Notes under the pieces: generated by a model
Told to the model about the DNA's origin: nothing
The model's database searches: none
Seen by the model: only the letters and a program-made list of their open reading frames with translations
Shown: piece after piece, positions 3,386 to 49,528 of the stretch
Position numbering within the stretch: the first letter of the stretch is position 1
Layout: the number at the start of each line of letters is the position of its first letter
NCBI GenBank assembly: GCA_023898465.1
Contig: CP060223.1
Coordinates: forward strand, 928,001 to 992,000
Source of the DNA: Candidatus Nomurabacteria bacterium
Lineage (GTDB): Bacteria > Patescibacteriota > Patescibacteriia > HK-STAS-PATE-3
Direction: 5' to 3'
Length of the DNA: 64,000 nucleotides
Made by a program: the position numbers and the translations under genes

Positions 3386-3751
3386 ATGAAACAACGTACA
3401 CGACTGCTCGGCACACTAGCAGCATTTGCTATACTAGCACTTCCGTTGCTTGTTTCCGCCCAATCTGCTTTCACCGTAGAAAACATCGGTGGATCAGTTG
3501 GTCTCGGTACTGCTGACCTCAAAGATACCGTCATCAACATCATTCAATGGGTGCTTGGTATCCTCGCACTCGTTGCTGTCGTTATGATCATCATTGGTGG
3601 TTTCCAGTGGATGACTGCTGGTGGAAACGACGAAAAGGTGGAAAAGGCCAAGAAGATTATCTCAGCCGCGGTAATTGGTCTTATTATCATCTTGTTGGCT
3701 TGGGCTATTGTCATCTTCGTCGCAAATACAACGGCGAATGTCACTACCTAA
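3386..3751 (+). CDS. VirB2/TrbC-type T4SS-pilin-like protein, tandem copy 1
   Basis: SD AGGGGGTGAG lies 7 nt upstream of ATG 3386. It has a signal peptide (…LLVSAQSA), two TM helices, a WMTAGGNDEKVEKAKK loop and a C-terminal tail ANTTANVTT. Confidence 0.6.
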   Translation: MKQRTRLLGTLAAFAILALPLLVSAQSAFTVENIGGSVGLGTADLKDTVINIIQWVLGILALVAVVMIIIGGFQWMTAGGNDEKVEKAKKIISAAVIGLIIILLAWAIVIFVANTTANVTT

Positions 3752-3777
3752 TCCAATCACGTATTTGGACTTTTAGA

Positions 3778-3811
3778 ACATACCCAGCTCACTGCTGGGT
3801 ATGTTTTTATT
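3778..3811 (+). terminator. rho-independent terminator after pilin copy 1
   Basis: 11-bp stem acatacccagc/gctgggtatgt followed by TTTTTATT. Confidence 0.6.
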
Positions 3812-3836
3812 CAAAAAAGCCTTACTATGCTATAGT
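3807..3836 (+). promoter_or_regulatory. sigma70-like promoter for pilin copy 2 (TTATTC -35, 18-nt spacer, extended -10 TGcTATAGT)
   Basis: Sequence read directly. It sits between the copy-1 terminator and the copy-2 SD. Confidence 0.4.
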
Positions 3837-3873
3837 AGTATATATCTTTGAGAAGAAGAGGGGGTGAATATAC

Positions 3874-4230
3874 ATGAAGAAAGCTTTAATCGCAGTCGGT
3901 ACTTTGGCGCTCGTTGCTATGCCAATGCTTGCATCAGCCCAATCTGCTTTCACCGTTGAAAACGTTGGAGGATCCGTCGGTCTCGGTACCGCTGATTTGA
4001 AGGACACCGTCATCAACATCATTCAATGGGTGCTTGGTATTGTCGCCTTAATCGCTGTCGTTATGATCATCATTGGCGGTTTCCAGTGGATGACTGCTGG
4101 TGGAAACGACGAAAAGGTGGAAAAGGCCAAGAAGATTATATCTTCAGCCGTAGTCGGTTTGATTATTGTGTTACTCGCCTGGGCAATTGTTGTATTCGTT
4201 GCAAACACAACCTCAAACGTTACCGCCTAG
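3874..4230 (+). CDS. VirB2/TrbC-type T4SS-pilin-like protein, tandem copy 2
   Basis: SD GAGGGGGTGA precedes ATG 3874. It is ~85% identical to copy 1 over the mature region, and its tail is ANTTSNVTA. Confidence 0.65.
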   Translation: MKKALIAVGTLALVAMPMLASAQSAFTVENVGGSVGLGTADLKDTVINIIQWVLGIVALIAVVMIIIGGFQWMTAGGNDEKVEKAKKIISSAVVGLIIVLLAWAIVVFVANTTSNVTA

Positions 4231-4251
4231 CGTACACTTCGCAAATTCTGC

Positions 4252-4287
4252 AAAAGCCCTACCTTATACGAGGGCTTTTGCTTTTTC
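4252..4287 (+). terminator. rho-independent terminator after pilin copy 2
   Basis: Stem aaaagccct…agggctttt followed by gcttttt. Confidence 0.5.
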
Positions 4288-4316
4288 TGCGCAACTTTTA
4301 TTTTTCATGGTATACT
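4288..4316 (+). promoter_or_regulatory. extended -10 promoter (TGgTATACT) for pilin copy 3
   Basis: tggtatact at 4308-4316, ~30 nt upstream of the SD. The -35 is weak. Confidence 0.4.
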
Positions 4317-4344
4317 GAATGCATTACATCTTTAGGTAAAGGAG

Positions 4345-4725
4345 GTGAATGTCAGAATGACCATAAAACGATTTCTTCCCTTAGCGCTACTCGGACTTAC
4401 CTTGGTATTACTGCCTTCTACTGTAGCAGCTCAATCAACCGCCTTTACGATCGAAAATATTGGTGGATCAATCGGTCTCGGTACCGCTGATTTGAAGGAC
4501 ACCGTCATCAACATCATTCAATGGGTGCTTGGTATCCTTTCATTAGTAGCCGTTGTTATGATTATTTTTGGTGGCTTTACCTGGATGACTGCCGGAGGTG
4601 CTGAAGATAAAGTTGATCAAGCCAAGCGTATTATCACCGCTGCAGTAATTGGTCTTATCATCATCTTGTTGGCTTGGGCTATTGTCATCTTCGTCGCAAA
4701 TACAACGGCGAACGTTACCACTTAG
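4345..4725 (+). CDS. VirB2/TrbC-type T4SS-pilin-like protein, tandem copy 3 (start may be ATG 4357)
   Basis: SD AAAGGAGG lies upstream. It has the same two-TM architecture, and its C-terminal 30 codons are almost identical at the DNA level to copy 1. Confidence 0.6.
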   Translation: MNVRMTIKRFLPLALLGLTLVLLPSTVAAQSTAFTIENIGGSIGLGTADLKDTVINIIQWVLGILSLVAVVMIIFGGFTWMTAGGAEDKVDQAKRIITAAVIGLIIILLAWAIVIFVANTTANVTT

Positions 4726-4748
4726 GCTACACTAGAATCAAAACACAG

Positions 4749-4781
4749 ACCTCTCCATATTTGGGGAGGTTTTGTGCTTTT
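4749..4781 (+). terminator. rho-independent terminator after pilin copy 3
   Basis: Stem acctctcc/ggggaggt (one G-U wobble) followed by TTTTGTGCTTTT. Confidence 0.5.
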
Positions 4782-4809
4782 GGCTGACTCCGCTACACTA
4801 TGAACGCAT

Positions 4810-6816
4810 ATGTCTAAAATACCGGATAGAACACAGGCCTGGCTGCTAGGAATGATGATCTGTATGATTGTTATCTCTTTTGCAGGTCAATACGTAAAAT
4901 GGCAAAGTCTGGCCTATAACGGACTCGATTTGGGTATTTACACTCAAGTAGTATCAGAAACCAGCCAAGGGAATTTCTTTGGCTTCACCATTCACCCGCA
5001 CTCCTACTTGGGTGACCATGTTGAATTTTTACTATTACTCCTTGTGCCTCTTTTTTGGATTGTGGCTCATCCACTCTGGCTCTTGGCCGCACAAAGCCTT
5101 GTGTTGGCTTTAGGCGCTATCCCTATATTTCGCCTTGCACGCAAAAAACTAAATGGTAACTGGGCTCTAGGTTTAAGTGCAGCCTACCTTTTTTCGCCTT
5201 TCCTCTGGAATGCAAACATGTATGAATTTCACATGTTAGCTTTTGCAATTCCAATCTTACTTGCGGCACTACAAACCTACATCACTAAATCACTCAAGTG
5301 GCATTGGCTTTGGCTGGCTTTGGCCTTGCTCGTACGAGAAGATGTTGCCTTTGTAGTATTTGGCATTGGTATTGTGGCTGCAATTGAGCGGAGGAATTGG
5401 AAATGGTGGCTACCCACCTTTTTGGTTAGCGCTGCCTGGTTTGGATGTAGTATTTATCTCGCTGGATCCTTGGGCACTTTGGGTGAATATAAATTTCTCA
5501 AATACTATGGATGGCTCGGCCCCGATCTTGTTTCTATTATCGGAAACTTTTTTGGACATCCCTGGCTCGTACTCCAACGCGTGCTTCATCCGCAAGCGCT
5601 TGCTTTCTTGCTAGGCCTAGGACTCCCTTTTGCCTATTTGCCAATCTTCCGACTTCGTTGGCTTATCCCGATCTTACCTATCTACTTACAACTTTCTCTC
5701 TCAGGAGTTGCGCGAGAAATCTCACTAGAAATGCACTACGTGAGTTTGTTCTTACCATTTCTCTGGATTGGCTCTATTGAGGCAATACACAAACTTCGTA
5801 GTGAAATGGGAAAAACTCGACGAGGAAAATTTATCCAAGAATACGCCGGGGTTATTGTTAGCGTACTCGCTGTTGTGGCAATATATTGCTTCATCGTAAT
5901 CGGTCCGATTCGCGGCCTGGCACAAACCTGGTATCGACCAGATACGCAACGTGAACATGAACAGTTAGCCAGAGATGTGCTCAACATTGTACCCGATACC
6001 ACACCTCTCGCAACTGGATATCGCTTTATTTCATGGACAGCCACTCGACCCGTGTTGTACTCCTTGCACTATCTTTTTATTGGCCGGCAACAATATAGCG
6101 ATGAAAGTTTCCCACTTGACCCTAGCATCCAAACGCTGCTCATAGACCAAAGTGATTTTGTTACCTATCAATCAGTCTATCCGGAAGATAATACCGACTA
6201 CAAAGGTGGTGCCCAGCGCTTCCGCGATCTCATTGAAGAAAGAAAGCTTCAGCTCAATCTCATGGTTGACGATCTCTTGCTCTATACAAACACCCATACT
6301 ACATCCCAAAAAGAATTAGTGCGTATTGGAAATGAAGATCAACTAAGACAAAGCCTCTTTCAGACAAGCAACGGACTCATCTTGCACTCCTGGGAGAATA
6401 ATGAAGGAATCAACAAACTTCAAAGTGAATATGTGCATATTAACACGCACAACTACCTCACCCTCCCGCTCTCGTTTATCTGGTCTCAGCATGAAATAAC
6501 AACGCGTCATAATACCGTACTACTCACACTGACTCGGGGAGACGGCGCAGTGTATCAAAAAGAATATCCCATCGCCCCGCTCTGGCCGCAATCAGAGTGG
6601 CCATTAGATACTCCAATGATTACGCAACACCAATTTCTCATCCCGACCGACTTCGCCCAAAGTGATACCCAGATAGCAATGGATGTGATGTCGATTCGGG
6701 GTCGATTAAGTTTGGATACCCAACGCTCTATCGTGCCTCGCTACGATGAACACGACTCCTTGGGCCACCTTAATCTCGGAAATCTTATTCTACCGGACGC
6801 AAGCGATACAGAGTAA
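4810..6816 (+). CDS. DUF2079-like polytopic membrane protein (putative GT-C-type glycosyltransferase) with large C-terminal extracytoplasmic domain
   Basis: The N-terminal ~400 aa is multi-TM. The opening (…GLDLGIYTQVV…GDHVEFLLLLLVPLFWI…LLAAQSLVLALGAIPIFRLA) resembles the DUF2079 family signature from memory, and a ~270-aa soluble tail follows. Confidence 0.5.
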   Translation: MSKIPDRTQAWLLGMMICMIVISFAGQYVKWQSLAYNGLDLGIYTQVVSETSQGNFFGFTIHPHSYLGDHVEFLLLLLVPLFWIVAHPLWLLAAQSLVLALGAIPIFRLARKKLNGNWALGLSAAYLFSPFLWNANMYEFHMLAFAIPILLAALQTYITKSLKWHWLWLALALLVREDVAFVVFGIGIVAAIERRNWKWWLPTFLVSAAWFGCSIYLAGSLGTLGEYKFLKYYGWLGPDLVSIIGNFFGHPWLVLQRVLHPQALAFLLGLGLPFAYLPIFRLRWLIPILPIYLQLSLSGVAREISLEMHYVSLFLPFLWIGSIEAIHKLRSEMGKTRRGKFIQEYAGVIVSVLAVVAIYCFIVIGPIRGLAQTWYRPDTQREHEQLARDVLNIVPDTTPLATGYRFISWTATRPVLYSLHYLFIGRQQYSDESFPLDPSIQTLLIDQSDFVTYQSVYPEDNTDYKGGAQRFRDLIEERKLQLNLMVDDLLLYTNTHTTSQKELVRIGNEDQLRQSLFQTSNGLILHSWENNEGINKLQSEYVHINTHNYLTLPLSFIWSQHEITTRHNTVLLTLTRGDGAVYQKEYPIAPLWPQSEWPLDTPMITQHQFLIPTDFAQSDTQIAMDVMSIRGRLSLDTQRSIVPRYDEHDSLGHLNLGNLILPDASDTE

Positions 6817-8422
6817 GCTCGCCTGATTGGTATACTGTCTGAAGTGCAGAAATCGCGCTTGGATCAGCCACACTATTCCGCGTATCAAATTCACCCCATA
6901 GTAAATAATCCACACTCTGCTCTCGCAACCATCTTTCAAGGGCAGTATTTCCACTTTGGCGCGCTACAATAAAACCATCTGATTTGTCATTGTAATGCAA
7001 GGTTTCAATCGGGTGTCCAAATACCACTGCCCGACCCGCCCAAGCTGGTATATAGAGATTGCCAATTTTCCCAGCTGCAAAAACTGCACGAGTATCGGTG
7101 TGTGTTTTCATCCAGTCACTCATATCTTGATAAGATTGATCGACGTAGAGGTGGTATGGCGGCTGACGAAAAGTATCATTCGTCCAAAGATGTACATCCA
7201 TGCCCACTAAAGCAATCGGCGAAAGACTAAACACTACTACGGCCAGCATTGGAGTGGCTACATAGCGAGACCAGCTTACTAATGGAAATCGCTTGAATAC
7301 TATACGAAGACCAATAAAAGCAAATAAAGCTAGGGGGAGCATCCAACCTTCAGTTAGGCGGCGACTAAAACTAATCGGCAAAAAGAAAATACATGCTTGC
7401 CCAAACAACCACGCAAGCGGCATTGCGTAGGTGCTTCGATCACGACCTAGTTGAAACAAAGCAAGAAGGGCCAGCGGAATAAGAGCGCCATAGCTAATAA
7501 GTGTGGTAAAAAAGAATGGCATAGTATTCACATTCTGAGCCGCTCGGCTATTCGCAATTGGGTCAAAAAGTATTATCCCAACTTGGTAGAAAATCATTGG
7601 CAGCGCTAGTCCTCCTACAAGAAGCGCCCCCCACAAAGCCCGTGCCGTTTTATCCCGCTGCCATAAAAAAGTGAAGAGTATAAAAAGCACAAAAACCCCT
7701 ATCACTGTTGGTAAGTGAAAGGGGTGAAAGCTCATAAGTAAAAAAAGCGACAGGCCGCTTTGCAAAAAATACTGTATTTGCTTTTGCTGCACCCCGAGGT
7801 AATACCAATGAAAAATGAGAATAAGTAATGAGGTGGCTAAAATAAAATGCGGGCTCTGATACATCGTTAAAAATGTATACGCTTCACTTACCCAGAGATC
7901 CATCGGCCAAATCGCCCACTCAATAAATCCAAAAATGTATTTAATAAAAGGATATGCAATTGCTCCAAATCCTGCAGCAAAAAGAAAAAGCAAAATAGCA
8001 AATTTACGCTCACGCCATGCCGGAAGAAAATTGCGTAAGAAAATTTCGCTCGACCATAGGAGTAAGGGGATGAGGAGGATTCGGGCTAAATGAAAACTTA
8101 CTAATGCGGAAAGGTGCAGCCACTTTGCCATATATCCAACAACAATCCAGATTGGACTGAAAATAAAAGCGTCATGCGGCTCAGCAGTAAACAAATCCCT
8201 AAGCATCACCTGTCCCTGTTTTACCTGTTCTATGTAGGAAAAATAGACCGGCAAATCACCTGGAGCCAGTGTATGTCCTCCGGTAAAAATCATCCCATCT
8301 GCCTGCATCATCCACGCGTAGAGGTAAGGGAACGTTGTGAGAATAACTAAAGCGAGGGCTATCCACCAAAACCAACGACGTGGCATTTTTTCAGCATCTG
8401 GGTGAAGAGAAAAAAACTGCAT
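6785..8422 (-). CDS. large polytopic membrane protein, probable GT-C-like glycosyltransferase
   Basis: 545 aa with ≥10 hydrophobic helices followed by a soluble C-terminal domain. It is in an operon with a Dpm1-like GT2 (4-nt overlap). Confidence 0.45.
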   Translation of the reverse strand: MQFFSLHPDAEKMPRRWFWWIALALVILTTFPYLYAWMMQADGMIFTGGHTLAPGDLPVYFSYIEQVKQGQVMLRDLFTAEPHDAFIFSPIWIVVGYMAKWLHLSALVSFHLARILLIPLLLWSSEIFLRNFLPAWRERKFAILLFLFAAGFGAIAYPFIKYIFGFIEWAIWPMDLWVSEAYTFLTMYQSPHFILATSLLILIFHWYYLGVQQKQIQYFLQSGLSLFLLMSFHPFHLPTVIGVFVLFILFTFLWQRDKTARALWGALLVGGLALPMIFYQVGIILFDPIANSRAAQNVNTMPFFFTTLISYGALIPLALLALFQLGRDRSTYAMPLAWLFGQACIFFLPISFSRRLTEGWMLPLALFAFIGLRIVFKRFPLVSWSRYVATPMLAVVVFSLSPIALVGMDVHLWTNDTFRQPPYHLYVDQSYQDMSDWMKTHTDTRAVFAAGKIGNLYIPAWAGRAVVFGHPIETLHYNDKSDGFIVARQSGNTALERWLREQSVDYLLWGEFDTRNSVADPSAISALQTVYQSGELTLYRLRPVE

Positions 8423-40918: not shown

Positions 40919-41650
40919 CTACGCGGCAATTAACTCATCCGAGTAGGCTCGTTCAGTAATTTCATTTAATATATATTCGTCACGGCGAAGGTTTGAGATG
41001 GTGACCATTTGACCATCCTTAAACATCTCTGCTTGATAAATTTCTTGATCTGACTCCGAGCTGAGAGTGACTTTTGCATCACCGAAATCGATAATATAAA
41101 AATTTCCCTCATTATCAATCATCACATTTCCGAAGTGTAAATCACGATGATAAATATTTGCTTCGTGCAGCTGTAAAATCATTTGCTTGAGCTGGTCCCT
41201 CATTTCCTTAATTTCGCTTTTCTCAAAACGACGTCCTTCCCTTTTCATATCACGAAACCATTGTTCAAGTGTGCGACCCTCGATTGCCTTCATAGCAAGT
41301 AAGGCGTGAAAATCGCCATTGCCTTCTCGACTTTCAATATATGCTAAGAGAGGAGGAACCCGTATTCCCGCCCGTTCTGCTTCTTGATGAATTTCAAATT
41401 CTCGGCGGAGGGTGTTTACTGTTGCGTGAGGGTCATGGATTGTTTTTGTGCACGTTTTATCAGAGTAGAAAGGATCTTGACCAACCCAGACTTCTCCTGA
41501 TTTTCCAATTCCGAGCTGTTCTCGTCTCTCATATTGTTCTTGAAAATGCTCCAGTAGCTCTCGAGCTGTCTCATCTATTTCAAATTCCTTAGCCTCAGCG
41601 TTTCGACCTCGGAAATATTCAGTGGTAAATTGGGCGCGTTCAATGCTCAT
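40919..41650 (-). CDS. small eukaryotic-like protein kinase-fold protein (Ser/Thr kinase-like)
   Basis: Gly-rich loop LGIGKSGEVWVG, catalytic loop YHRDLHFGNVMI and a DFG motif IIDFGDA. Confidence 0.6.
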   Translation of the reverse strand: MSIERAQFTTEYFRGRNAEAKEFEIDETARELLEHFQEQYERREQLGIGKSGEVWVGQDPFYSDKTCTKTIHDPHATVNTLRREFEIHQEAERAGIRVPPLLAYIESREGNGDFHALLAMKAIEGRTLEQWFRDMKREGRRFEKSEIKEMRDQLKQMILQLHEANIYHRDLHFGNVMIDNEGNFYIIDFGDAKVTLSSESDQEIYQAEMFKDGQMVTISNLRRDEYILNEITERAYSDELIAA

Positions 41651-41661
41651 GTATTGAGGTA

Positions 41662-44202
41662 TTAACTGCTGCTCAAACTACTTAGTTGTTCCTTCAGGTT
41701 GCTAATATCCTCCTGCGTGGAAGCGCGTAATTCCTCCGGGATACGTGGATTATTGAGCATCGCCTCTTTTTTGGCAATGAGCTGCGTTAAACGCTCTCCT
41801 TCTTTTTCTAACCATTCGGCAAAGGCGGCGACTCGCGGGCGAGGGAAGCTTAATTCCAAGGCCCCGAGCTGAAGCTTGCTCGCATCCTTAGCTGCCGGGC
41901 CAAATGAAATCTTGGTGAGTTTTTCTAAGAGCTCAGTCGCATATCCCGTCTTACTGAGTAAGTGCGCGTGTTCTTCAGTGCTAATTCCGCTATGGGCCTT
42001 AAATGCGCGCAGTGATTGTACGGTTTGTTGGAAGCGTTGGAATTCTTTTTCTGCCTCCAGGTCAATAAAGGTTTTTTGCGGCTGCGGCCAGGCGCTAACA
42101 ATGAGCATTGAGCCCTTGGGATAGAGTTCGCGCCAAATGCGTTCAGTGAAAAAGGGGAGGTAGGGATGGAGCATCTTCAAGATGTGCTCGAGCACGTGTC
42201 GGATGACCGCCGGGTTATTTTCCGTTTTGGCAACTTCTAAATACCAGTCAGCAAATTCATGCCAGGCGAAAGTATATACTTCCTCAGCAGCCGCGCTAAA
42301 ACGATAAGCGTTGAGATGTTCAGTACTTGTTTTAATGCAAGTCTGAAGTCGGGAGAGAATCCATTGGTCAGCCAGACTATGGGCTGCCAAAGTAGTTTCT
42401 TTTTCTTCCACGCCCTGCAAAAGCGCAAAGCGGCTAATATTCCAGAGCTTGTTTACAAAGTTGCGATACGCAGCAATTTTTTGCTCTGATAAACGAGTGT
42501 CATTTCCCGGCGTTGTCCCAATAATGAGGGAGAGTCGTGTGGCGTCAGCGCCATACTTATCAGCCATCTCAAGCGGGTCAATACCATTACCGAGAGACTT
42601 TGACATTTTTCGTCCATGTTCATCACGCACCAGGCCGTGGAGATAGACTGTTTGAAATGGAACCTCTTGTAGGGCATAGGTAGACATGAGAATCATGCGG
42701 GCTACCCAGAAGAAGAGTATGTCATAACCTGTTTCCATGACGCTGGTTGGATGGAAGCGTTTGAGATCCTCAGTCTGCTTTGGCCAACCCAAAGTAGAGA
42801 AGGTCCATAAGCCAGATGAGAACCAGGTATCAAGCGTATCTGATGATTGTTGCCACTCCTTTCCCTTAGGGGCTTTTTCGCCAACATGGATTTCCTTTTG
42901 CTCAGGATTTTTTTCTGATGGACGTTCCCAAACTGGCAAACGATGACCGTACCAAATTTGTCGCGAGATATTCCAATCATGCAGATTTTCCATCCAGTGC
43001 TGGTAAATCTTTTTAAAGCGAGATGGCACGAAAGCTATTTCATCTTGAGTAGCTACCTCTAAAGCTCGCTGCTTCAGGCTTTTTCCATTCAATTTCTTTG
43101 TTGGGGTATCAACACTAATAAACCATTGTTCAGACGGGAGAGGCTCTAGCGCAGTGCCGCAGCGATAACAGGTTGCCAGGTTGTGGTTGTAGTTTTCGTC
43201 AATGTGATCAACCAGTCCTTTTTCTTGAAGAATCTCTACCACCTTCTTTCTCGCTTCTTGTACATCGATGCCAGCATAGGTGCCAGCAGCTTCGGTGAGC
43301 TTGCCTTGTTCATTGATAATTTTTTCGACCGGCAGTTGATATTTTTTAGCCAACTCAAAATCAAGTAGGCTATGACCCGGTGTGATCGTCATTGCACCAC
43401 TGCCAAGTTTCGGATCAGCTGATTCGTCCGCAATCACTCGAGCAGTGATTGGGCCATTGATCCACTCCAGTGCGAATTCTTTATCGATCATATCTCGGTA
43501 GCGCGTATCATCCGGATGAACAATAATTACCTTATCGCCGAATTTCGTTTCTGGACGGGCGGTACCAATAATCACCGGACCGTATTTGAAATAGTAGAAG
43601 GGTGCTTTTTCTTCCTTATACTCGACCTCGTCATCAGCTAAAGTGGATTGACAGCGAGTGCACCAATTTACTACCCGTTGACCACGGTAAATGAGACCGT
43701 CTTCATACATTTGTATAAACATGGTTTGGACGGCCTTGCTTAGACCCTCATCAAGTGTGAAGCGTTCACGGCTCCAATCACAAGAAGCACCGAGTCGTTT
43801 CATCTGTTCGGTAATTTGACCTTGCGATTCTTTTACAAATTTTTCTACCAGCTTGAGAAATTTTTCTCGACCCAAATCGTCCTTAGTTTTTTTTTCAGCC
43901 TTAAGTTTCTTCTCCACAACATTTTGAGTTGCAATTGCAGCATGATCTGTGCCGGGTAACCAGAGCGTTCGTTCACCCTTCATCCGATGATAGCGTACGA
44001 GGGTGTCTTGAAGAGCAATCATCACAGCGTGACCCATATGAAGATTTGCTGTGGTGTTTGGTGGCGGTAAGGCAATCGAAAAAGTAGGGGCACTCTCTGG
44101 TACTTTTAATTTATCTGGATTAAAGGCGCCGGACTTTTCCCACGCTTCGTAAATACCTTTTTCTTCTTCTTTTGGATTGTAGGTTTTGGAGAGCTCTTTC
44201 AT
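41662..44202 (-). CDS. valS: valine--tRNA ligase
   Basis: PPPNTTANLHMGHAV (HIGH), KMSKSLGN, an editing CP1 domain and a C-terminal coiled coil. 846 aa. Confidence 0.85.
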   Translation of the reverse strand: MKELSKTYNPKEEEKGIYEAWEKSGAFNPDKLKVPESAPTFSIALPPPNTTANLHMGHAVMIALQDTLVRYHRMKGERTLWLPGTDHAAIATQNVVEKKLKAEKKTKDDLGREKFLKLVEKFVKESQGQITEQMKRLGASCDWSRERFTLDEGLSKAVQTMFIQMYEDGLIYRGQRVVNWCTRCQSTLADDEVEYKEEKAPFYYFKYGPVIIGTARPETKFGDKVIIVHPDDTRYRDMIDKEFALEWINGPITARVIADESADPKLGSGAMTITPGHSLLDFELAKKYQLPVEKIINEQGKLTEAAGTYAGIDVQEARKKVVEILQEKGLVDHIDENYNHNLATCYRCGTALEPLPSEQWFISVDTPTKKLNGKSLKQRALEVATQDEIAFVPSRFKKIYQHWMENLHDWNISRQIWYGHRLPVWERPSEKNPEQKEIHVGEKAPKGKEWQQSSDTLDTWFSSGLWTFSTLGWPKQTEDLKRFHPTSVMETGYDILFFWVARMILMSTYALQEVPFQTVYLHGLVRDEHGRKMSKSLGNGIDPLEMADKYGADATRLSLIIGTTPGNDTRLSEQKIAAYRNFVNKLWNISRFALLQGVEEKETTLAAHSLADQWILSRLQTCIKTSTEHLNAYRFSAAAEEVYTFAWHEFADWYLEVAKTENNPAVIRHVLEHILKMLHPYLPFFTERIWRELYPKGSMLIVSAWPQPQKTFIDLEAEKEFQRFQQTVQSLRAFKAHSGISTEEHAHLLSKTGYATELLEKLTKISFGPAAKDASKLQLGALELSFPRPRVAAFAEWLEKEGERLTQLIAKKEAMLNNPRIPEELRASTQEDISNLKEQLSSLSSS

Positions 44203-44209
44203 TGGAGAT

Positions 44210-44530
44210 TTTCTTGGATAAATAAAAACGCCTTACTGTTTGTAAGGGTCCACGATGTTGCATCGGGACGGTACCACCTTACTCGCCCTCCGTAGCCTCG
44301 TGCGAAGGAGGGCTTCCGAAGAACTCTTCATTGACGCATGCTGACGGATGCGATCCGGCCAACTTACCTCAGTACCACCTAGGGTACAGGATTCAGTTAG
44401 CAGCTTCCCCAAGGGACACAATGTCTAATACATAGCCAGACAATCTTGGGTTAAGTGCTTTTCGTGAAATGAGAAATAACTGCTTCGATAGTAGGCTTTT
44501 TTCATAAGTCAGTCAAGAACGCTTGACCAA
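44210..44530 (-). promoter_or_regulatory. putative T-box riboswitch leader of valS
   Basis: The minus-strand leader (~330 nt) contains AGUAAGGUGGUACCGUC, which resembles the T-box consensus AGGGUGGNACCGCG. A terminator follows 20 nt downstream, before ATG: ccttacaaacagtaagg then CGUUUUU. The Stem I specifier loop was not resolved. Confidence 0.4.
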
Positions 44531-44597
44531 GTTTTATTATCTACGCTAGGGTCAGAATAGATTTTGCAATGGCTGTTTGACAATGGAGGAAAAAGCG

Positions 44598-44909
44598 ATG
44601 AGCTGCAATCCACGGAATGTGCGGAATCGTCGACGGAATCTGTACGTAGCCCTTGGCCGTTTGGGGTTGCCACCGGATCAGCATCAGGAAGAGAAGCGGA
44701 AGATACGTGATGCCTGTCGTCATGGCAGGGCCTACGTGTTGCCTCCTCGCCGCGGTCGATCCATTTCCAAGCCGGTCTGTCGACCGTGTAATGGGAAGGG
44801 AAAGCGCGACTGTCATCTCTGTAATGGCAGGAGTAGTGGATGCTACTACTGCAATTACACTGGCAAGAAGACTTGCAACGTTTGCATGGGTGAGGGAGTG
44901 ACTACCTAG
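44598..44909 (+). CDS. small protein with four CxxCxGxG repeats (DnaJ-type zinc-finger-like), GC-rich island 3
   Basis: CRPCNGKG, CHLCNGRS, CYYCNYTG, CNVCMGEG. SD GGAGG lies 8 nt before ATG 44598. Confidence 0.4.
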   Translation: MSCNPRNVRNRRRNLYVALGRLGLPPDQHQEEKRKIRDACRHGRAYVLPPRRGRSISKPVCRPCNGKGKRDCHLCNGRSSGCYYCNYTGKKTCNVCMGEGVTT

Positions 44910-44924
44910 GAGTAAGGAGCTTCG

Positions 44925-45176
44925 ATGTCACAGAAGCGGCGTGGGCACTTGCTCATGCAAACGAACGTGGTAGGACTTGGACTTATCGCGATTTGGTATA
45001 CACCAGTTGGAAAAAGTCGACACGAGCTTGTTTCCTGGACAGTTACTTTTTCCTGTGGAGAAGTGTGTAGAATCAGAGGCCGCAGCCAGCACGAAATCAT
45101 AGCAACGTCTCGTCGTGAACACGGTGAATGTCGTCTGGGGTCTGCCTGTAGAGTGATTGCCTGCGACGAGCTGTGA
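44925..45176 (+). CDS. hypothetical small protein (GC-rich island 3)
   Basis: Good SD AAGGAG, then 5 nt, then the ATG. It has a hydrophobic N-terminal segment. Confidence 0.3.
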   Translation: MSQKRRGHLLMQTNVVGLGLIAIWYTPVGKSRHELVSWTVTFSCGEVCRIRGRSQHEIIATSRREHGECRLGSACRVIACDEL

Positions 45177-45458
45177 CACTTCCTTGCTCGGTTGTTGTCC
45201 GAGGCTGCTTGTCGTATACTAGATCTAGCGCCTCTCTTGCGAGGCATCAACAGAGCACCTTCACATACAGAAGGAGGATCTCATGAAGATCAGGTCTCCC
45301 GTGAGCGTTGTCGTATCTCCGACTGCCGATGTTGATCGGCTCAACGCCTCCGGGAAGGAGGTGGTCCTAATCGAGAGGTCCTAGGAGGCGTTGTGGGTTT
45401 CTGACGGCCATACTGTGTGTGGCCGTCGTTTCTTTGCCGCAGAATCCAGGGAGGGAGT

Positions 45459-45635
45459 ATGTCGAAGGAGGAATCGAATTCTGCCCTAGGGGACTTTGTC
45501 TCAACCGTGCTGGGTTTCCTCGGTGCGCTCGCAGTCATGTTTGCTGCGTTGCTCGGCGCCCTGCTTCTCGCCTTCGTGAAAACACCGGATCTCGATCCAT
45601 ATGATGATCGTGGTCCGGTCTCTCGACAGCATTGA
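45459..45635 (+). CDS. hypothetical small membrane protein (GC-rich island 3)
   Basis: GGGAGGGAG precedes ATG 45459. It has one TM helix (VLGFLGALAVMFAALLGALLLAFV). Confidence 0.3.
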   Translation: MSKEESNSALGDFVSTVLGFLGALAVMFAALLGALLLAFVKTPDLDPYDDRGPVSRQH

Positions 45636-45673
45636 CTGACATCCACCTCTCTAGGCAACTAGGGAGGTTTTGC

Positions 45674-46723
45674 TTAGGTTGTTTTTGATAGACTCCAGTT
45701 TGGGTCAGCCTTGAGTAACTTCCAATCTGTATATTTTTTTTGCTTCGCCTGGAAATACCCCGCTGCGGCAATCATTGCTGCGTTATCAGTGCAGTAAGGG
45801 AGATTAGGTTTCAAAAAAGTGACGGCTGGAAATCGACGCGCGACAGCCGCGCTAAGTTCAGCGCGGAGCCGCCCATTGGCGGCCACGCCGCCGGCCAGCA
45901 GCAAAGTGTTGACCTTATGTTCTTGCAGGGCCCGCAGCGTTTTTCCAATCAACACATCAACTACCGCCTGTTCAAAAGAGGCGGCAATATCAGGCAAGTC
46001 TTTTTTCTTTGGATGATGCTTTTCTAAATGATAGCGCACGGCAGTTTTTAATCCAGCAAAAGAGAATTCAAGGTTAGCGCTTTTCAGCATTGGTCGCGGC
46101 CAGCTGTAGGCTTTTGGATTCCCTGTGCTAGCCAGCGTACTTAAGACTGGTCCACCCGGATAACCTAAACCCATTAACTTGGCCACTTTATCAAAGGCTT
46201 CGCCGGCGGCGTCGTCGCGCGTCTCACCAAGCAGTTGGAATTTCCCATAACCACGCATGAGTACAAGTTCAGTGTGACCTCCTGACACGAGTAGTCCCAA
46301 GGCTGGGAAAGGTGCCTTAAGTATACTTGGCGTATTTCCCTCCGCATCTGGTAACCAATTTGCATAGAGGTGGCCGGCCAGATGGTTCACTCCTACTAAA
46401 GGTTTTTTTAAAGTCCAAGCCAACGTCCGCCCTACTTCAACTCCAACCATTAGGGCTGACATGAGTCCTGGGCCGGCTGTCACTGCAATGACATCAATAT
46501 CTTCAAGTGTTATTTTAGCCTCATGCAGGGCAGCATCAAGGCCGGGAATAATAACTTCAAGGTGCATGCGCGCAGCTACTTCAGGCACTACGCCACCAAA
46601 TTTTGCATGAGTCTTTACCTGTGAGGCAACAAAGTGACTACGGACAAGAAAATGATCAGCCTTTCTCTCGAGAATGGCGATTGAGGTTTCGTCACAAGAT
46701 GATTCAATGCCGAGGATGATCAT
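45674..46723 (-). CDS. tsaD: tRNA N6-adenosine threonylcarbamoyltransferase TsaD
   Basis: MIILGIESSCDETSIAIL…, the Kae1/TsaD metal-binding HxxH region and 349 aa. Confidence 0.9.
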   Translation of the reverse strand: MIILGIESSCDETSIAILERKADHFLVRSHFVASQVKTHAKFGGVVPEVAARMHLEVIIPGLDAALHEAKITLEDIDVIAVTAGPGLMSALMVGVEVGRTLAWTLKKPLVGVNHLAGHLYANWLPDAEGNTPSILKAPFPALGLLVSGGHTELVLMRGYGKFQLLGETRDDAAGEAFDKVAKLMGLGYPGGPVLSTLASTGNPKAYSWPRPMLKSANLEFSFAGLKTAVRYHLEKHHPKKKDLPDIAASFEQAVVDVLIGKTLRALQEHKVNTLLLAGGVAANGRLRAELSAAVARRFPAVTFLKPNLPYCTDNAAMIAAAGYFQAKQKKYTDWKLLKADPNWSLSKTT

Positions 46724-47298
46724 GTGAGTTGTTTCCGTCGAATGAGGAGTAAGACGCTGAGTGAACCATCAAGCAAGACAATTGCAGCCGGGTAGAGCCA
46801 GGTACTTGGTACTATAGTGTCCAGAGCCAGAAGTGCAAAGACGTGGGCAATTGCGGCAAAAGCGTAGGATAGCACCTTTTCCTCATGCGGATAATGGTAA
46901 CCTTTTCGAAAAGTAGGAAGTGAGCCAAAAAAATCAACCAAGACAATAAGTACGATGGATGCTAGAGGCTCTTTTGTGAGTATCCAAAGGAGTAAAGAAA
47001 AAGCTGCGGCACTCAAGGCAATCCAATCAAAGCGTAAGAAGCGGCGATCTCCCCATTTCAGCGCGCCAATAAATATAAGCAGGCAAGATATGGAGTTAAT
47101 CCCAGTGACCCAGGCGCCTGGCCCGGCATCTTTCGCAATCTGAGCAGCAAAGGCGATAATGTTGAGCGTACCCCAGACTAACCAGGAAAAGGCATGTGGT
47201 TTGAGCTCTTTGCGTAGAACGCCGCGGACATATAAAAGGTCTCCAGATATGAGCAGTAGCGAGCCGATAATGCCAAAAAGTGTGGTCATACTTTGCAT
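46720..47298 (-). CDS. hypothetical integral membrane protein (~6 TM), co-transcribed upstream of tsaD
   Basis: Its stop overlaps the tsaD start by 4 nt and the whole protein is hydrophobic. Confidence 0.5.
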   Translation of the reverse strand: MQSMTTLFGIIGSLLLISGDLLYVRGVLRKELKPHAFSWLVWGTLNIIAFAAQIAKDAGPGAWVTGINSISCLLIFIGALKWGDRRFLRFDWIALSAAAFSLLLWILTKEPLASIVLIVLVDFFGSLPTFRKGYHYPHEEKVLSYAFAAIAHVFALLALDTIVPSTWLYPAAIVLLDGSLSVLLLIRRKQLT

Positions 47299-47396
47299 GC
47301 TGATATTGTAGCACGCGCATTGACATTTTCATGTTTTTTGCTACAGTAGCCTGTCGTTCATTACACTTGAATAGTCAGGAAAGGGAGGGCTATCAC

Positions 47397-47726
47397 ATGT
47401 TTTCGGTCTGGAATCTCGTCTGGGTGATACTCCTTGGATGCGTCTTTCTCTACTTCGGTCCTGTGCGGTTGCGGCGGCGTCGCAATAAGGTACGGCGAGA
47501 CGTGCTTGGGATGTTGTCGAAAAGGACCGTGCGAACGACAAGGCCTGAGCTGGTGTCGATGGTACGAGAAAGGCACAAGCATCCAACAGCTTTGATCGAA
47601 GAAGCGATTCGGGATCTCGTTAATCAGGGCAAGATTCTCAAACTCTCCTTCTCTGAGGGTTCGCGCAGCTACACGAACTACGTGATAGCTCAGCGAGACA
47701 GCTCGGAAGAAGGTCGTTCCCCTTAG
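47397..47726 (+). CDS. hypothetical N-terminally anchored small protein (GC-rich island 4)
   Basis: TM helix VWNLVWVILLGCVFLYF followed by an Arg-rich soluble part. Confidence 0.35.
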   Translation: MFSVWNLVWVILLGCVFLYFGPVRLRRRRNKVRRDVLGMLSKRTVRTTRPELVSMVRERHKHPTALIEEAIRDLVNQGKILKLSFSEGSRSYTNYVIAQRDSSEEGRSP

Positions 47727-47734
47727 GTTTCGAC

Positions 47735-48034
47735 GTGAGAGGAGACGAAGTGCACGAGGCGCATATTCATGTGACTTGCTCCACAGATGAGCATGATCGC
47801 ACGAAGGACTTTTTTGAAGATCACATCGCTGATGTGGTCGATGGCTACCGAGGCGCGGGAGCAGATACCCAGATTGAAGCTGAAGGAATGATTCGGGTGA
47901 GTTTCAACTTTCCTTCAGTGGAGATGCGGGAACGTTTTTGTCGGATGGAACAACGAGCATTGAGCTTGATGCTTCGGCATGCAGGAATCAATGCGAGTTG
48001 CAGATTGTGTGCAGACGAATGCACGCAAGGATAG
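47735..48034 (+). CDS. hypothetical protein (GC-rich island 4); GTG start, alternatively GTG 47750
   Basis: The ORF has GAGAGGAG upstream of the second GTG. No family was recognised. Confidence 0.3.
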   Translation: MRGDEVHEAHIHVTCSTDEHDRTKDFFEDHIADVVDGYRGAGADTQIEAEGMIRVSFNFPSVEMRERFCRMEQRALSLMLRHAGINASCRLCADECTQG

Positions 48035-48046
48035 AGAGGGGGCACC

Positions 48047-48673
48047 GTGCGTTTCTGGACTCTGTTTTTGATCCTGTGTTGTCTCTGTGCAAATACCGCC
48101 TTTGCGCGTTCACTGACCTTCACGGCCGGTGAGACTGCGGTGGCCAAGGGTGGCGGCATCGAGTACGCACAGCGTTCTGGTCAGGTTGAGTGGGCAGCCT
48201 TTGCTTATCTCAACGGCAACGTCAACGAGGGCAAAGCGCTCTTGAGCGCTGACCCCACATCGTGGTGTCGGGTTATGGCTGGTCCGATTGTGGGCCTGCA
48301 ATACCAGGACACCCTGGGCGCGCGTCTCTATGGCGGGGCTGAAGCCAAGGTGTTACCGCACTTTGGTAAAGAGCACCTCACCATCAAGGCGGCAACTCGA
48401 CACCGAGGAAGCACACGCTTCCATCATCTGGTGGTAGTGAATTGGATGCATGACTGGTCGCCGAGTATTTCGGCTGGTCCGGTCTACCAACCAATTCTGC
48501 GATCTGATCATTCCCTACCCTGGGATCACCGATTTGGCGTGCAAGTGAACTATAGTCAGAATAGTCACTTCACGTTGATGAGCGAGGTGCGAATGTCGAC
48601 CGGGTCGGCTGACGCGTCCTATGGTGTGTACCATCGGGTGAGTGGCCACATCGAACTGGCCTTCAAGTTCTGA
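48047..48673 (+). CDS. secreted hypothetical protein with signal peptide and C-terminal aromatic residue (beta-barrel-like)
   Basis: SD GAGGGGG, then 4 nt, then GTG. Signal peptide MRFWTLFLILCCLCANTAFA. It has alternating hydrophobic patterns and ends …HIELAFKF. Confidence 0.4.
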   Translation: MRFWTLFLILCCLCANTAFARSLTFTAGETAVAKGGGIEYAQRSGQVEWAAFAYLNGNVNEGKALLSADPTSWCRVMAGPIVGLQYQDTLGARLYGGAEAKVLPHFGKEHLTIKAATRHRGSTRFHHLVVVNWMHDWSPSISAGPVYQPILRSDHSLPWDHRFGVQVNYSQNSHFTLMSEVRMSTGSADASYGVYHRVSGHIELAFKF

Positions 48674-48679
48674 CTCCGA

Positions 48680-48737
48680 CCCCGTCTCTCGTAATCCGAT
48701 ACTGTCGGAGAAACGAGAGGCGGGGTTTTCTTTTATC
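48680..48737 (+). terminator. rho-independent terminator (CCCCGTCTCTCG/CGAGAGGCGGGG then UUUUCUUUUAUC); tail identical to cassette A1
   Basis: CGGGGTTTTCTTTTATCAA is shared with the 23186-23262 element. Confidence 0.6.
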
Positions 48738-48745
48738 AAAAGGAA

Positions 48746-48774
48746 AAAGCGCTGATGCAATGCACCAGCGCTTT
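48746..48774 (-). terminator. terminator hairpin for convergent DUF218 gene (AAAGCGCTG/CAGCGCTTT then U-tract on minus strand)
   Basis: 9-bp perfect stem. The minus-strand downstream sequence is TTTTTCCTTTTGAT. Confidence 0.5.
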
Positions 48775-48778
48775 GTAG

Positions 48779-49336
48779 CTAGCTAAATCGTCGAACCAAG
48801 AAGGCCGACCAACCAAGCAGATCCCACACTAGGAAGGAAAGGAAATGCCGGAAGCGTTTCTGGCAGTTACCTCCATAAGACGAGCGGGCCTTTATGACTA
48901 TGATCTCGATGCCGGAGCCATGCCACACATAGCGGAAAATCGCTCGAGCTCGCCGGGCGTGCCAAGGGTGAGTGACTAGCGCCACGCTACGCCATTCGGG
49001 GTGCTGACGCGTGATGCGCAGGACCTCGATCGCGTTATTGATAGTGCCGATTGAGCCGTTCTCCAGTATCATGTATACATTGCGTGCTCGCGCCTCGATC
49101 AAACGCTTCATCGCGATGGCTTCAGTCATGTGACCATCGTTGCCGTTGCCACCGCTCAGGACAATGCACCGAGCTAGTTCAGCTTGGTAGAGATTGAGAC
49201 CCTTGCGAGCGATTGATGCACTTTGGCGACTGGCTTGCGTGCCATCTGGCGAGAGGCCACAGCCGAGACAGATCACTGCATCGACGGGTTGTTCCGGGTT
49301 GATTCGTTCGTCTGGTATTTCCAGTCGGTGAACCAT
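48779..49336 (-). CDS. DUF218 (YdcF/SanA/ElyC-like) domain protein
   Basis: AVICLGCGLS… and …VLSGGNGNDGHMTEAIAMKRLI… match the DUF218 signature (vLGgg…G.tEA). Confidence 0.55.
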   Translation of the reverse strand: MVHRLEIPDERINPEQPVDAVICLGCGLSPDGTQASRQSASIARKGLNLYQAELARCIVLSGGNGNDGHMTEAIAMKRLIEARARNVYMILENGSIGTINNAIEVLRITRQHPEWRSVALVTHPWHARRARAIFRYVWHGSGIEIIVIKARSSYGGNCQKRFRHFLSFLVWDLLGWSAFLVRRFS

Positions 49337-49528
49337 CCGCCGGATCCGTTTTTTAAGCCTGTTCGTATATCACCCCCATGGTTGCGATCTGTGAAAGAAC
49401 GTCCTGTTTGGTCGATAAAGTAGCACAGCGCCAGCTAGAGTCAAGTTGTCCTTCACTTGACGGAGAAAGACGTTTTTAGATATAGTGCACGTAGACAGAT
49501 TTTGGTGGCTCTCAAACGGGAGTCACCT

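Follow-up and report, generated by a model that had tools for sequence, protein, structure and literature searches.

Three small genes and a structured RNA between valS and tsaD in a Candidatus Nomurabacteria genome, with a predicted zinc-binding mini-protein

Gene content of the valS-tsaD gap

The region analysed lies within a 64,000-nucleotide stretch of a Candidatus Nomurabacteria genome (assembly GCA_023898465.1, contig CP060223.1, positions 928,001 to 992,000), which we refer to as the window and number from its first nucleotide. On the - strand, valS (41662-44202) and tsaD (45674-46723) are separated by a gap of 1471 nt, which carries a cassette on the + strand, opposite to both neighbours. 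The cassette contains a structured RNA and three genuine small genes, of which two lack annotation. The open reading frames (ORFs) were designated ORF1, ORF2 and ORF4, and the features of the gap are as follows.

44203-44481, - strand: valS leader, the left boundary of the cassette (sequence reading, terminator and promoter scan)
44512-44527, no strand: 16-bp palindrome, GTCAAG-N4-CTTGAC
44598-44909, + strand: ORF1, 103 aa, putative zinc-finger mini-protein (ATG 44598, TAG 44909)
44610-44723, + strand: N-terminal half of ORF1, two predicted helices (residues 5-20 and 26-42)
44778-44897, + strand: zinc half of ORF1, four Cys pairs (C61/64, C72/75, C82/85 and C93/96)
44925-45176, + strand: ORF2, 83 aa, with an AAGGAG Shine-Dalgarno site at 44914-44919
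45192-45220, + strand: possible internal promoter (TTGTTG, 17-nt spacer, TATACT)
45229-45390, + strand: conserved structured RNA element (fold z-score and RNAalifold)
45402-45436, + strand: intrinsic terminator T1 (12-bp stem, then UUUCUUU)
45459-45635, + strand: ORF4, 58 aa, predicted single-pass membrane protein, annotated as hypothetical (USN53457.1, H6760_04860)
45645-45676, + strand: terminator T2, 3′ of ORF4 and convergent with the tsaD stop codon (45674-45676, - strand)

Two -35-like hexamers lie back to back in the 16-bp palindrome: that of valS is TTGACT (- strand) and that of ORF1 is TTGACC (+ strand). The palindrome is conserved in the related Logan contig L001. We infer a promoter role for it, with a weak or uncertain -10 element on the + strand.

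The accessions of ValS, ORF4 and TsaD are consecutive (USN53456.1, USN53457.1 and USN53458.1), the exact ORF1 sequence had no entry in the protein collection searched and the exact ORF2 sequence occurred only in Logan and ENA gene calls; ORF1 and ORF2 are therefore missing from the GenBank annotation. The zinc-finger gene was unannotated by NCBI in both metagenome-assembled genomes (MAGs) that could be checked (window 44598-45176; contig L089, 5540-5926), ORF2 was likewise skipped in the NCBI record of the window, and the Logan and ENA gene callers were inconsistent on these genes. The ENA contig L084 differed from the window over nt 1-72 and was identical over its other 798 nt, which may represent a chimeric end or a strain variant inside ORF1. 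Annotation pipelines routinely miss such genes. Given how tiny Patescibacteria genomes are, small genes that are conserved within a lineage and specific to it probably matter.

An earlier reading of the window, made from the sequence alone (the sequence-only reading), had quoted a 103-aa ORF with four cysteine motifs and described these as four CxxCxGxG repeats. The ORF was present exactly as quoted at 44598-44909, with a Shine-Dalgarno site (GGAGG, 44585-44589) 8 nt 5′ of its start that is kept in L001 and L086. Its C-terminal half read CRPCNGKG-KRD-CHLCNGRS-SG-CYYCNYTG-KKT-CNVCMGEG. Four Cys pairs were kept in every homologue, and the strict CxxCxGxG pattern was matched by motifs 1 and 4 alone, motif 2 being CHLCNGRS and motif 3 CYYCNYTG. 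The window has 302 stop-to-stop frames that reach 60 aa or more, and of these ORF1 was the sole frame with at least three CxxC and also the sole frame with at least two CxxCxGxG.

A search of 5.8 billion clustered proteins revealed one relative of ORF1, P0001, with 67% identity; it is encoded on L001, where the gene order is as in the window. When 1.84 billion representatives were scanned in full with HMMER, the only true ORF1 relatives were P0001 and a second protein, P0003 (128 aa, E 2e-11); the rest were generic CxxCxGxG-array proteins. The contigs encoding P0003 (L086 and L089/L090) carry a kinase gene and valS, followed on the opposite strand by the zinc-finger gene and a RidA-like gene. 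A further copy was found by tblastn (E 9e-9) in L003, between valS and tsaD and with a RidA-like gene after it; the N-terminus of this copy is cut off by a 100-N scaffold gap. The zinc-finger gene was thus divergent from valS in L001, L003 and L086/L089, as in the window, and lay beside valS wherever its context was visible. Scans of JGI metagenome contigs and of IMG/VR with the ORF1 and ORF2 alignments revealed no more members of either family, and a profile search with the zinc half revealed no additional relatives.

The eight Cys were invariant in all homologues compared (five or six sequences), while the residues between them varied, and the ratio of nonsynonymous to synonymous divergence (dN/dS) of ORF1 was 0.42 against L001. 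Antisense frames were open over ORF1 in the window and in L001; such frames are common in Arg- and Gly-rich genes, and in L086 the sole open frame is ORF1. The sequence-only reading had allowed for a chance Cys-rich frame whose spacing would be kept in no homologue. All eight positions were kept in every homologue found, and because the homologues keep the Cys spacing ORF1 stands as a gene; judged by this conservation it is a genuine conserved gene.

ORF2 starts 15 nt after the ORF1 stop codon and, because there is no terminator between them, the two are probably co-transcribed. Its product is basic, contains Cys and His and ends in DEL, and it had no family or PDB match in Pfam, NCBIfam, PHROGs, PADLOC or PDB searches. 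The block 44890-45150 shares 94-98% nucleotide identity with L001 (79% overall), dS over ORF2 is just 0.17 and the ORF2 ATG is ACG in L001, which would also suit a non-coding RNA in which ORF2 is a chance frame. This candidate was rejected, and we regard it as most improbable. Fold z-scores of +0.12 and +1.43 for the two strands indicated no excess structure, Rfam gave no match to the block, and dS is equally low in part of tsaD. The ORF2 frame is open in both the window and L001, whereas the 83-aa frame on the minus strand (44928-45179) has a stop in L001. In addition, contig L002 encodes a homologue (7683-7997, - strand) that is detectable at the protein level only, with 42% identity over 60 aa. 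This homologue lies at the equivalent locus beside tsaD, has its own Shine-Dalgarno site and a TTG start, and shares WY.P.GK, W.VTFSCG, His66, Cys69, Cys75 and the terminal DEL. ORF2 is, on these comparisons, a protein-coding gene: the small ORF with a Shine-Dalgarno site noted in the sequence-only reading is borne out as a gene by the L002 homologue.

A palindromic element resembling repetitive extragenic palindromic (REP) sequences, GTAGGCGAAGTTGGCCAGCTTCGCCTAC, is repeated several times around the ORF2-like gene of L002 (7000-8148, e.g. 7940-8040). It gives 'RRSWPTSP' in several frames, and contigs of two independent assemblies (L002 and L088) end at it.

Family tests and predicted function of ORF1

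No known family was assigned to ORF1 in any library searched (Pfam, NCBIfam, PHROGs, PADLOC and PDB sequences), and the last four of these gave no significant match to ORF1, ORF2 or ORF4. The best Pfam match of ORF1 was BSD2_CRD (PF25436), below its cut-off of 27 bits: 13.2 bits for full ORF1 and 16.5 bits for the zinc half (E 0.0097). The scores of the relative P0001 (20.1 bits, E 7e-4) and of P0004 (19.3 bits, E 1.4e-3) were also below this cut-off, and BSD2 from the PDB matched ORF1 at E=5. The DnaJ cysteine-rich (CR) domain (PF00684, gathering score 32.7 bits) gave no match to ORF1, its zinc half or P0001 even at E<=10, and P0003 scored 8.1 bits; P0004 and P0007, which are distant profile matches of the ORF1 family, had weak scores to the same domain. 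An hhalign comparison with the CR domains of three genuine DnaJ proteins (L024, L035 and L053) aligned 11 columns, covering one motif, with 56% probability. Anti-TRAP (PF15777) did not match ORF1, P0001 or P0003.

The absence of a J-domain, stated in the sequence-only reading, was confirmed by Pfam (no match of PF00226 in ORF1) and by profile comparison; the corresponding loop reads LPPD or YPQD and lacks the His. A decayed J-domain (helix II, HPD loop and helix III) in the N-terminal half was considered and rejected, as hhalign against three J-domains gave 0.8% probability. The same reading had likened ORF1 to stand-alone DnaJ-CR-like zinc ribbons. The DnaJ-type Cys knuckles stood; membership of the DnaJ CR family did not, as the Pfam cut-off was not reached and hhalign aligned one motif. 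We therefore liken ORF1 to a zinc knuckle of DnaJ-CR/BSD2 type at the level of the motif, and it is not a demonstrable member of either family.

ORF1 as a whole has an isoelectric point (pI) of 10.1. Its N-terminal half (pI 11.7, 16 Lys/Arg in 58 residues) was modelled by AlphaFold2 as a two-helix hairpin with a predicted local distance difference test score (pLDDT) of 78-88 in two runs, of 3 and 5 sequences, and carries the conserved signature RxRRRxLxIALG..G.P.D....EKxKI..AC. The zinc module comprises ~40 residues with spacers of 2-3 residues and a Cys-pair period of 10-11 residues. A Foldseek comparison of the ORF1 model with the PDB returned nothing with E below 1.

Comparison with known systems revealed partial likeness to several. 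ORF1 resembles the DnaJ/Hsp40 CR domain (PF00684) in its four Cys pairs of CxxCxGxG type, but lacks the J-domain, the glycine/phenylalanine-rich region and the C-terminal substrate domains. The CR domain is also longer (~65-70 residues, with long hairpins) than the ~40-residue module of ORF1 with its short spacers, just two of the four ORF1 motifs are strict, and motif 2 is CxC in two relatives. The plastid BSD2/ZnJ2 proteins (PF25436) are, like ORF1, small and J-domain-less with tandem CxxCxGxG pairs at an 11-residue period, and published work ascribes to them a holdase-type function that does not involve stimulation of Hsp70. They differ in the ~20-residue spacer between the BSD2 motif pairs and in their plastid/Rubisco context, and the basic helical N-terminal half is unique to ORF1, whose host is a member of the Patescibacteria. 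Anti-TRAP of Bacillus (RtpA, PF15777) is likewise a bacterial mini-protein (~53 aa) with a zinc-binding DnaJ-like Cys motif; it acts by binding another protein, TRAP, and occurs in a T-box-controlled context. However, anti-TRAP forms one zinc site from two motifs, whereas in ORF1 the motifs number four and an additional N-terminal domain is present. The T-box-like leader in the window belongs to valS and not to ORF1, which is encoded on the other strand.

Archaeal zinc-finger micro-proteins such as Haloferax HVO_2753 are very small, consist of four C(P)xCG motifs with no other domain and have mostly unknown partners. At the level of general description rather than of aligned sequences, they differ from ORF1 in belonging to another domain of life, in their CPxCG flavour and in having no basic helical hairpin.

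The CXXCXGXG motif binds Zn in DnaJ, anti-TRAP and cysimiditides (10.1101/2024.10.02.616296), the DnaJ CR domain binds two Zn2+ and takes part in substrate binding (published work), and ZnJ2, as a stand-alone protein, is a holdase (PMC5818400). From this zinc binding and from the holdase activity of ZnJ2 we infer that ORF1 is a two-zinc partner-binding module on a basic hairpin. The four invariant Cys pairs in the C-terminal 40 residues would most likely bind two Zn2+, forming a double knuckle that is compact and resembles those of DnaJ-CR/BSD2. If BSD2, ZnJ2 and anti-TRAP are a guide, the module would most likely grip a partner protein as a holdase or adaptor, an enzymatic role being less likely; for the basic helical hairpin, the probable docking target is nucleic acid or an acidic partner. 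As far as sequence comparison goes, ORF1 is a new small family in which a known zinc-knuckle motif stands in a new two-domain arrangement with a predicted function only. Should ORF1 indeed combine a basic hairpin with a minimal two-zinc module, few if any known DnaJ-CR-like units would be smaller, and it would offer a tractable model for knuckle-partner recognition that does not involve Hsp70.

ORF1 may instead be a small nucleic-acid-binding regulator whose Arg-rich helix and zinc knuckles would bind DNA or RNA, perhaps at the leader of valS or at the divergent promoter region that the two genes share. The pI of 11.7 and the 16 Lys/Arg of the N-terminal half point in this direction, as do the divergent arrangement with valS kept in four lineages, the palindrome covering both -35 boxes and the adjoining T-box-like leader. 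On the other hand, the L086/L089 lineage keeps the gene with just 123 nt of intergenic sequence and no T-box motif, library and structure searches matched no known DNA- or RNA-binding fold or family, and the characterised CxxCxGxG modules bind proteins. We consider such a regulator unlikely, and it remains a serious alternative to the partner-binding module.

A Cys-rich peptide precursor of the ribosomally synthesised and post-translationally modified peptide (RiPP) type, comparable to the cysimiditides, or a metal-buffering or redox peptide is a far more remote reading, to which we give very little credence. CXXCXGXG Zn-tetracysteine motifs are known in RiPP precursors (10.1101/2024.10.02.616296), DnaJ cysteine-rich domains show thiol-oxidoreductase activity in vitro (published work), and ORF1 is small and adjoins other small Cys-containing ORFs. 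In a cysimiditide precursor the modified Asp lies between two CxxCxGxG motifs, and a PIMT-like methyltransferase is encoded next to it (10.1101/2024.10.02.616296), whereas among the neighbours of ORF1 (valS, tsaD and small ORFs with no Pfam match) there was no methyltransferase, cyclase, protease or exporter. Moreover, the N-terminal half of ORF1 is conserved and structured, unlike a leader-and-core layout.

ORF4, its upstream RNA and the valS leader

ORF4 has a Shine-Dalgarno site and is preceded by GGGAGGGAG, and its acidic product has one clear hydrophobic span, FVSTVLGFLGALAVMFAALLGALLLAFV, and a conserved C-terminus, PDLDPY(D/E)DRG..SRQH. It is intact in contig L087, with seven conservative and several synonymous changes. 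This conservation argues that ORF4 is a coding gene, and the sequence-only reading of a small ORF with a Shine-Dalgarno site and a single transmembrane helix agrees both with the intact L087 copy and with the annotated USN53457.1. By contrast, the membrane-tethered sensor raised as an option in that reading is not supported, since ORF1 has no transmembrane segment and the transmembrane helix belongs to the separate ORF4, behind a terminator.

Relative to shuffled controls, the RNA at 45229-45390 had a fold z-score of -3.9 in the window and -4.3 in L001. RNAalifold with two sequences gave a single consistent multi-helix structure of 51 pairs, none of them broken and six compensatory, and with three sequences gave 55 pairs, again six compensatory. 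The predicted fold places the T1 terminator, at 45402-45428 plus its U-tract, directly after the multi-helix part. In the two-sequence structure 100% of cells could pair, compared with 38-57% when the partners were slid by one to three columns. The element had no Rfam match, and a covariance model (R1) revealed no second copies in the window or in related loci. A 33-aa ORF within it (45283-45384) was rejected as a gene: indels of 1 nt and 2 nt between the alleles disrupt its frame, and conserved helices enclose both its AUG and its Shine-Dalgarno site.

Downstream of this element, L001 and L087 retain the T1 stem, in which one pair has changed in a compensatory manner and the loop differs. T1 ends ~20 nt 5′ of the ORF4 Shine-Dalgarno site, leaving no room for a promoter. 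The sequence TTGTTG-17-TATACT at 45192-45220 is fully conserved in L001 and L087 and is a putative internal promoter; T2 is conserved in L087. Because T1 abuts ORF4 with no room for a promoter and TTGTTG-17-TATACT lies upstream, the layout resembles a terminator-type leader for ORF4, with a conserved structured element followed by an intrinsic terminator (45229-45436) and then by the gene. ORF4 expression would depend on read-through of T1, the structured RNA acting as an attenuator or leader. Terminator-based riboswitch and attenuator leaders share with 45192-45635 the order of promoter-like site, ~160-nt multi-helix RNA, terminator, Shine-Dalgarno site and small ORF, but here there was no match to an Rfam family, no antiterminator fold or ligand was identified and only two distinct alleles are known. 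The RNA could equally be a structured 3′ untranslated region of the ORF1-ORF2 mRNA, with ORF4 needing read-through. This RNA before ORF4 is a candidate regulatory element, few of which have been described in the phylum.

Taken together, our preferred reading, held with moderate confidence, is that the cassette is resident and clade-specific on the strand opposite valS and tsaD, that the zinc module of ORF1 binds a partner and that ORF4 lies behind the RNA and T1. Several observations weigh against it. For ORF1, no Pfam cut-off was reached, hhalign was limited to one DnaJ CR motif, motif 2 is shortened to CxC in P0003 and L003, and the very basic N-terminal half is no less suited to binding nucleic acid than to a chaperone role. 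The zinc half stayed at pLDDT <50 in both AlphaFold2 runs, with no confident model, so its zinc count and fold are only predicted. The dN/dS values of ~0.4 for ORF1 and ORF2 represent moderate constraint only, ORF2 has the ACG codon in L001, and the ORF4 copy in L001 has a TTG start and a 1-nt frameshift. The RNA structure is defined by two distinct alleles only and was derived from those same sequences, and no antiterminator alternative was identified for 45229-45436, where no systematic search for alternative folds was made. A broader claim, that ORF1 founds a Patescibacteria-restricted family of two-domain zinc mini-proteins (J-domain-independent chaperones or adaptors, or valS-tied regulators) and that the RNA is a new ~160-nt cis-regulatory class gating a small membrane protein via a terminator, appears improbable to us.

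On the other side of the palindrome, the valS leader contains a T-box-like motif, AAGGUGGUACCGUCCC, at 44280-44265 and a terminator hairpin at 44247-44231 followed by a U-run, with a promoter-like TTGACT-17-TACTAT at 44516-44488. Read by eye, an antiterminator GUAAGG-UGGUACC-GUCC...GGAC-CCUUAC overlaps the terminator CCUUAC...GUAAGG and its U-run, such that the T-box sequence lies in a 7-nt antiterminator bulge that competes with the terminator. The motif is conserved in L001 (1-330) and L003 (7949-8007). L086/L089, in which just 123 nt separate valS from the zinc-finger gene, lack it. The Rfam T-box model (RF00230) gave no match at its gathering score or at E<=10, even with just 336 nt searched, and neither Stem I nor a specifier codon was identified. 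A possible reading is that the leader is a T-box that has diverged in Patescibacteria and whose Stem I is unusual.

Age and turnover of the cassette

The sequence-only reading had described 44540-45670 as a GC-rich island whose position between valS and tsaD suggested recent acquisition. The GC excess is real but modest: 0.535 against a window mean of 0.470, within the top 2.5% of 1131-bp windows. GC at the third codon position (GC3) was 0.58 for ORF1 and 0.69 for ORF4, compared with 0.42-0.45 for housekeeping genes. In L086 and L003, GC3 of the zinc-finger gene equals that of the host, and GC at the second position (GC2) is high everywhere. The excess falls mostly at codon position 2 and comes from richness in Arg, Gly, Pro and Cys. 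Since GC3 matches the host in L086 and L003 and GC2 is high everywhere, most of the island signal is amino-acid composition.

The length of the tsaD-valS gap was then compared among relatives. In L004/L005, which are labelled Patescibacteria or Saccharibacteria and whose TsaD is 52-53% identical to that of the window, the spacing is 35-37 nt; the gap is 954 nt in L003, 1471 nt in the window and 2355 nt in L006. Because L004/L005 have this short spacing while nearer relatives carry gaps, the slot is an insertion relative to more distant Patescibacteria that is old and clade-level. The comparison thus upheld an insertion with variable contents and not its recent date.

A recently acquired foreign island between valS and tsaD has several points in its favour: the GC and GC3 excess, the missing gap in more distant relatives, the low dS against L001, and slot cargo that varies and in L006 includes a gene like that of a REP-associated tyrosine transposase (RAYT). 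Nevertheless, the same gene is divergent from valS at the equivalent position in L001, L003 and L086/L089, and the TsaD proteins of the L003 lineage and of the MAG behind L086/L089 are just 70-71% identical to that of the window. GC3 has ameliorated to the host value in L086 and L003. The gap of the window contains no repeats, integrase, tRNA gene or mobile-element signatures, the only tRNA gene of the window lying 6 kb away from the cassette, and an IMG/VR scan revealed no relatives of ORF1 or ORF2 in viral contigs. Since part of tsaD itself shows the same low dS, the cause is recombination of alleles among sister lineages rather than a foreign insertion. Recent acquisition is largely refuted by these findings, and we consider it very improbable. 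In practical terms, the analysis at present corrects the local annotation and removes this claim.

The resident, clade-specific cassette has itself changed between lineages. L087 shares 89% DNA identity with the window from 45155 onward (window 45155-49444 compared). On the 5′ side of this point L087 has the 3′ end of a RidA-like gene, which holds the place of ORF2, and then ~30 nt resembling the 3′ end of ORF2 before the RNA element. Because of this RidA-like 3′ end and ORF2-like remnant, the arrangement suggests an ancestral order of zinc-finger gene, RidA-like gene, ORF2, RNA and ORF4 with different losses per lineage; the window lacks the RidA-like gene and L087 lacks ORF2. The JAZDMR01 MAG has valS, the zinc-finger gene and a RidA gene at one contig end and the ORF2-like gene, a CDP-alcohol transferase gene and tsaD at another. 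The ends of these contigs (22 and 27) do not overlap, so the adjacency of zinc-finger gene, RidA, ORF2-like gene and tsaD is unproven.

Comparison of window 44174-46862 with L001 revealed that tsaD is saturated at synonymous sites in codons 1-160 (dS >2), with a dS of ~0.3 in codons 161-280. In addition, L087 has an RNA region of the L001 type and an ORF4 region of the window type. As dS jumps between segments of tsaD and L087 switches type, the divergence of the sister lineages is a pronounced recombination mosaic, which indicates frequent homologous recombination among these Patescibacteria.

The same tsaD-valS slot takes different inserts in different lineages. In L006 the gap cargo (3439-5787) is unrelated to that of the window and consists of a 165-aa ORF, a 187-aa RAYT-like ORF and an ORF for a 252-aa TrmB-like regulator.

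The neighbouring valS also varied. ValS is 846 aa in the window (41662-44202), 984 aa in L003 (8008-10962, with a ~125-aa insertion) and 1151 aa in L086 (2422-5877), where a histidine-phosphatase domain is inserted (His_Phos_1, precomputed Pfam). A protein-kinase-like gene of 243 aa always followed valS (window 40919-41650, - strand; L003 10952-11596; L086 1665-2411), and the order tsaD-valS-kinase is syntenic. This kinase was considered as a Bud32-like partner of TsaD and rejected, as its matches among PDB sequences were generic Hanks-type only (PknA/B and CK1).

Further along the window, at 47331-48673 and just past a gene for a 192-aa membrane protein, there are three GC-richer orphan ORFs of 131, 99 and 208 aa. 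These had one weak winged-helix match and none in Pfam or PADLOC, and they are conserved and gene-called in L087 (774-2050) and L082.

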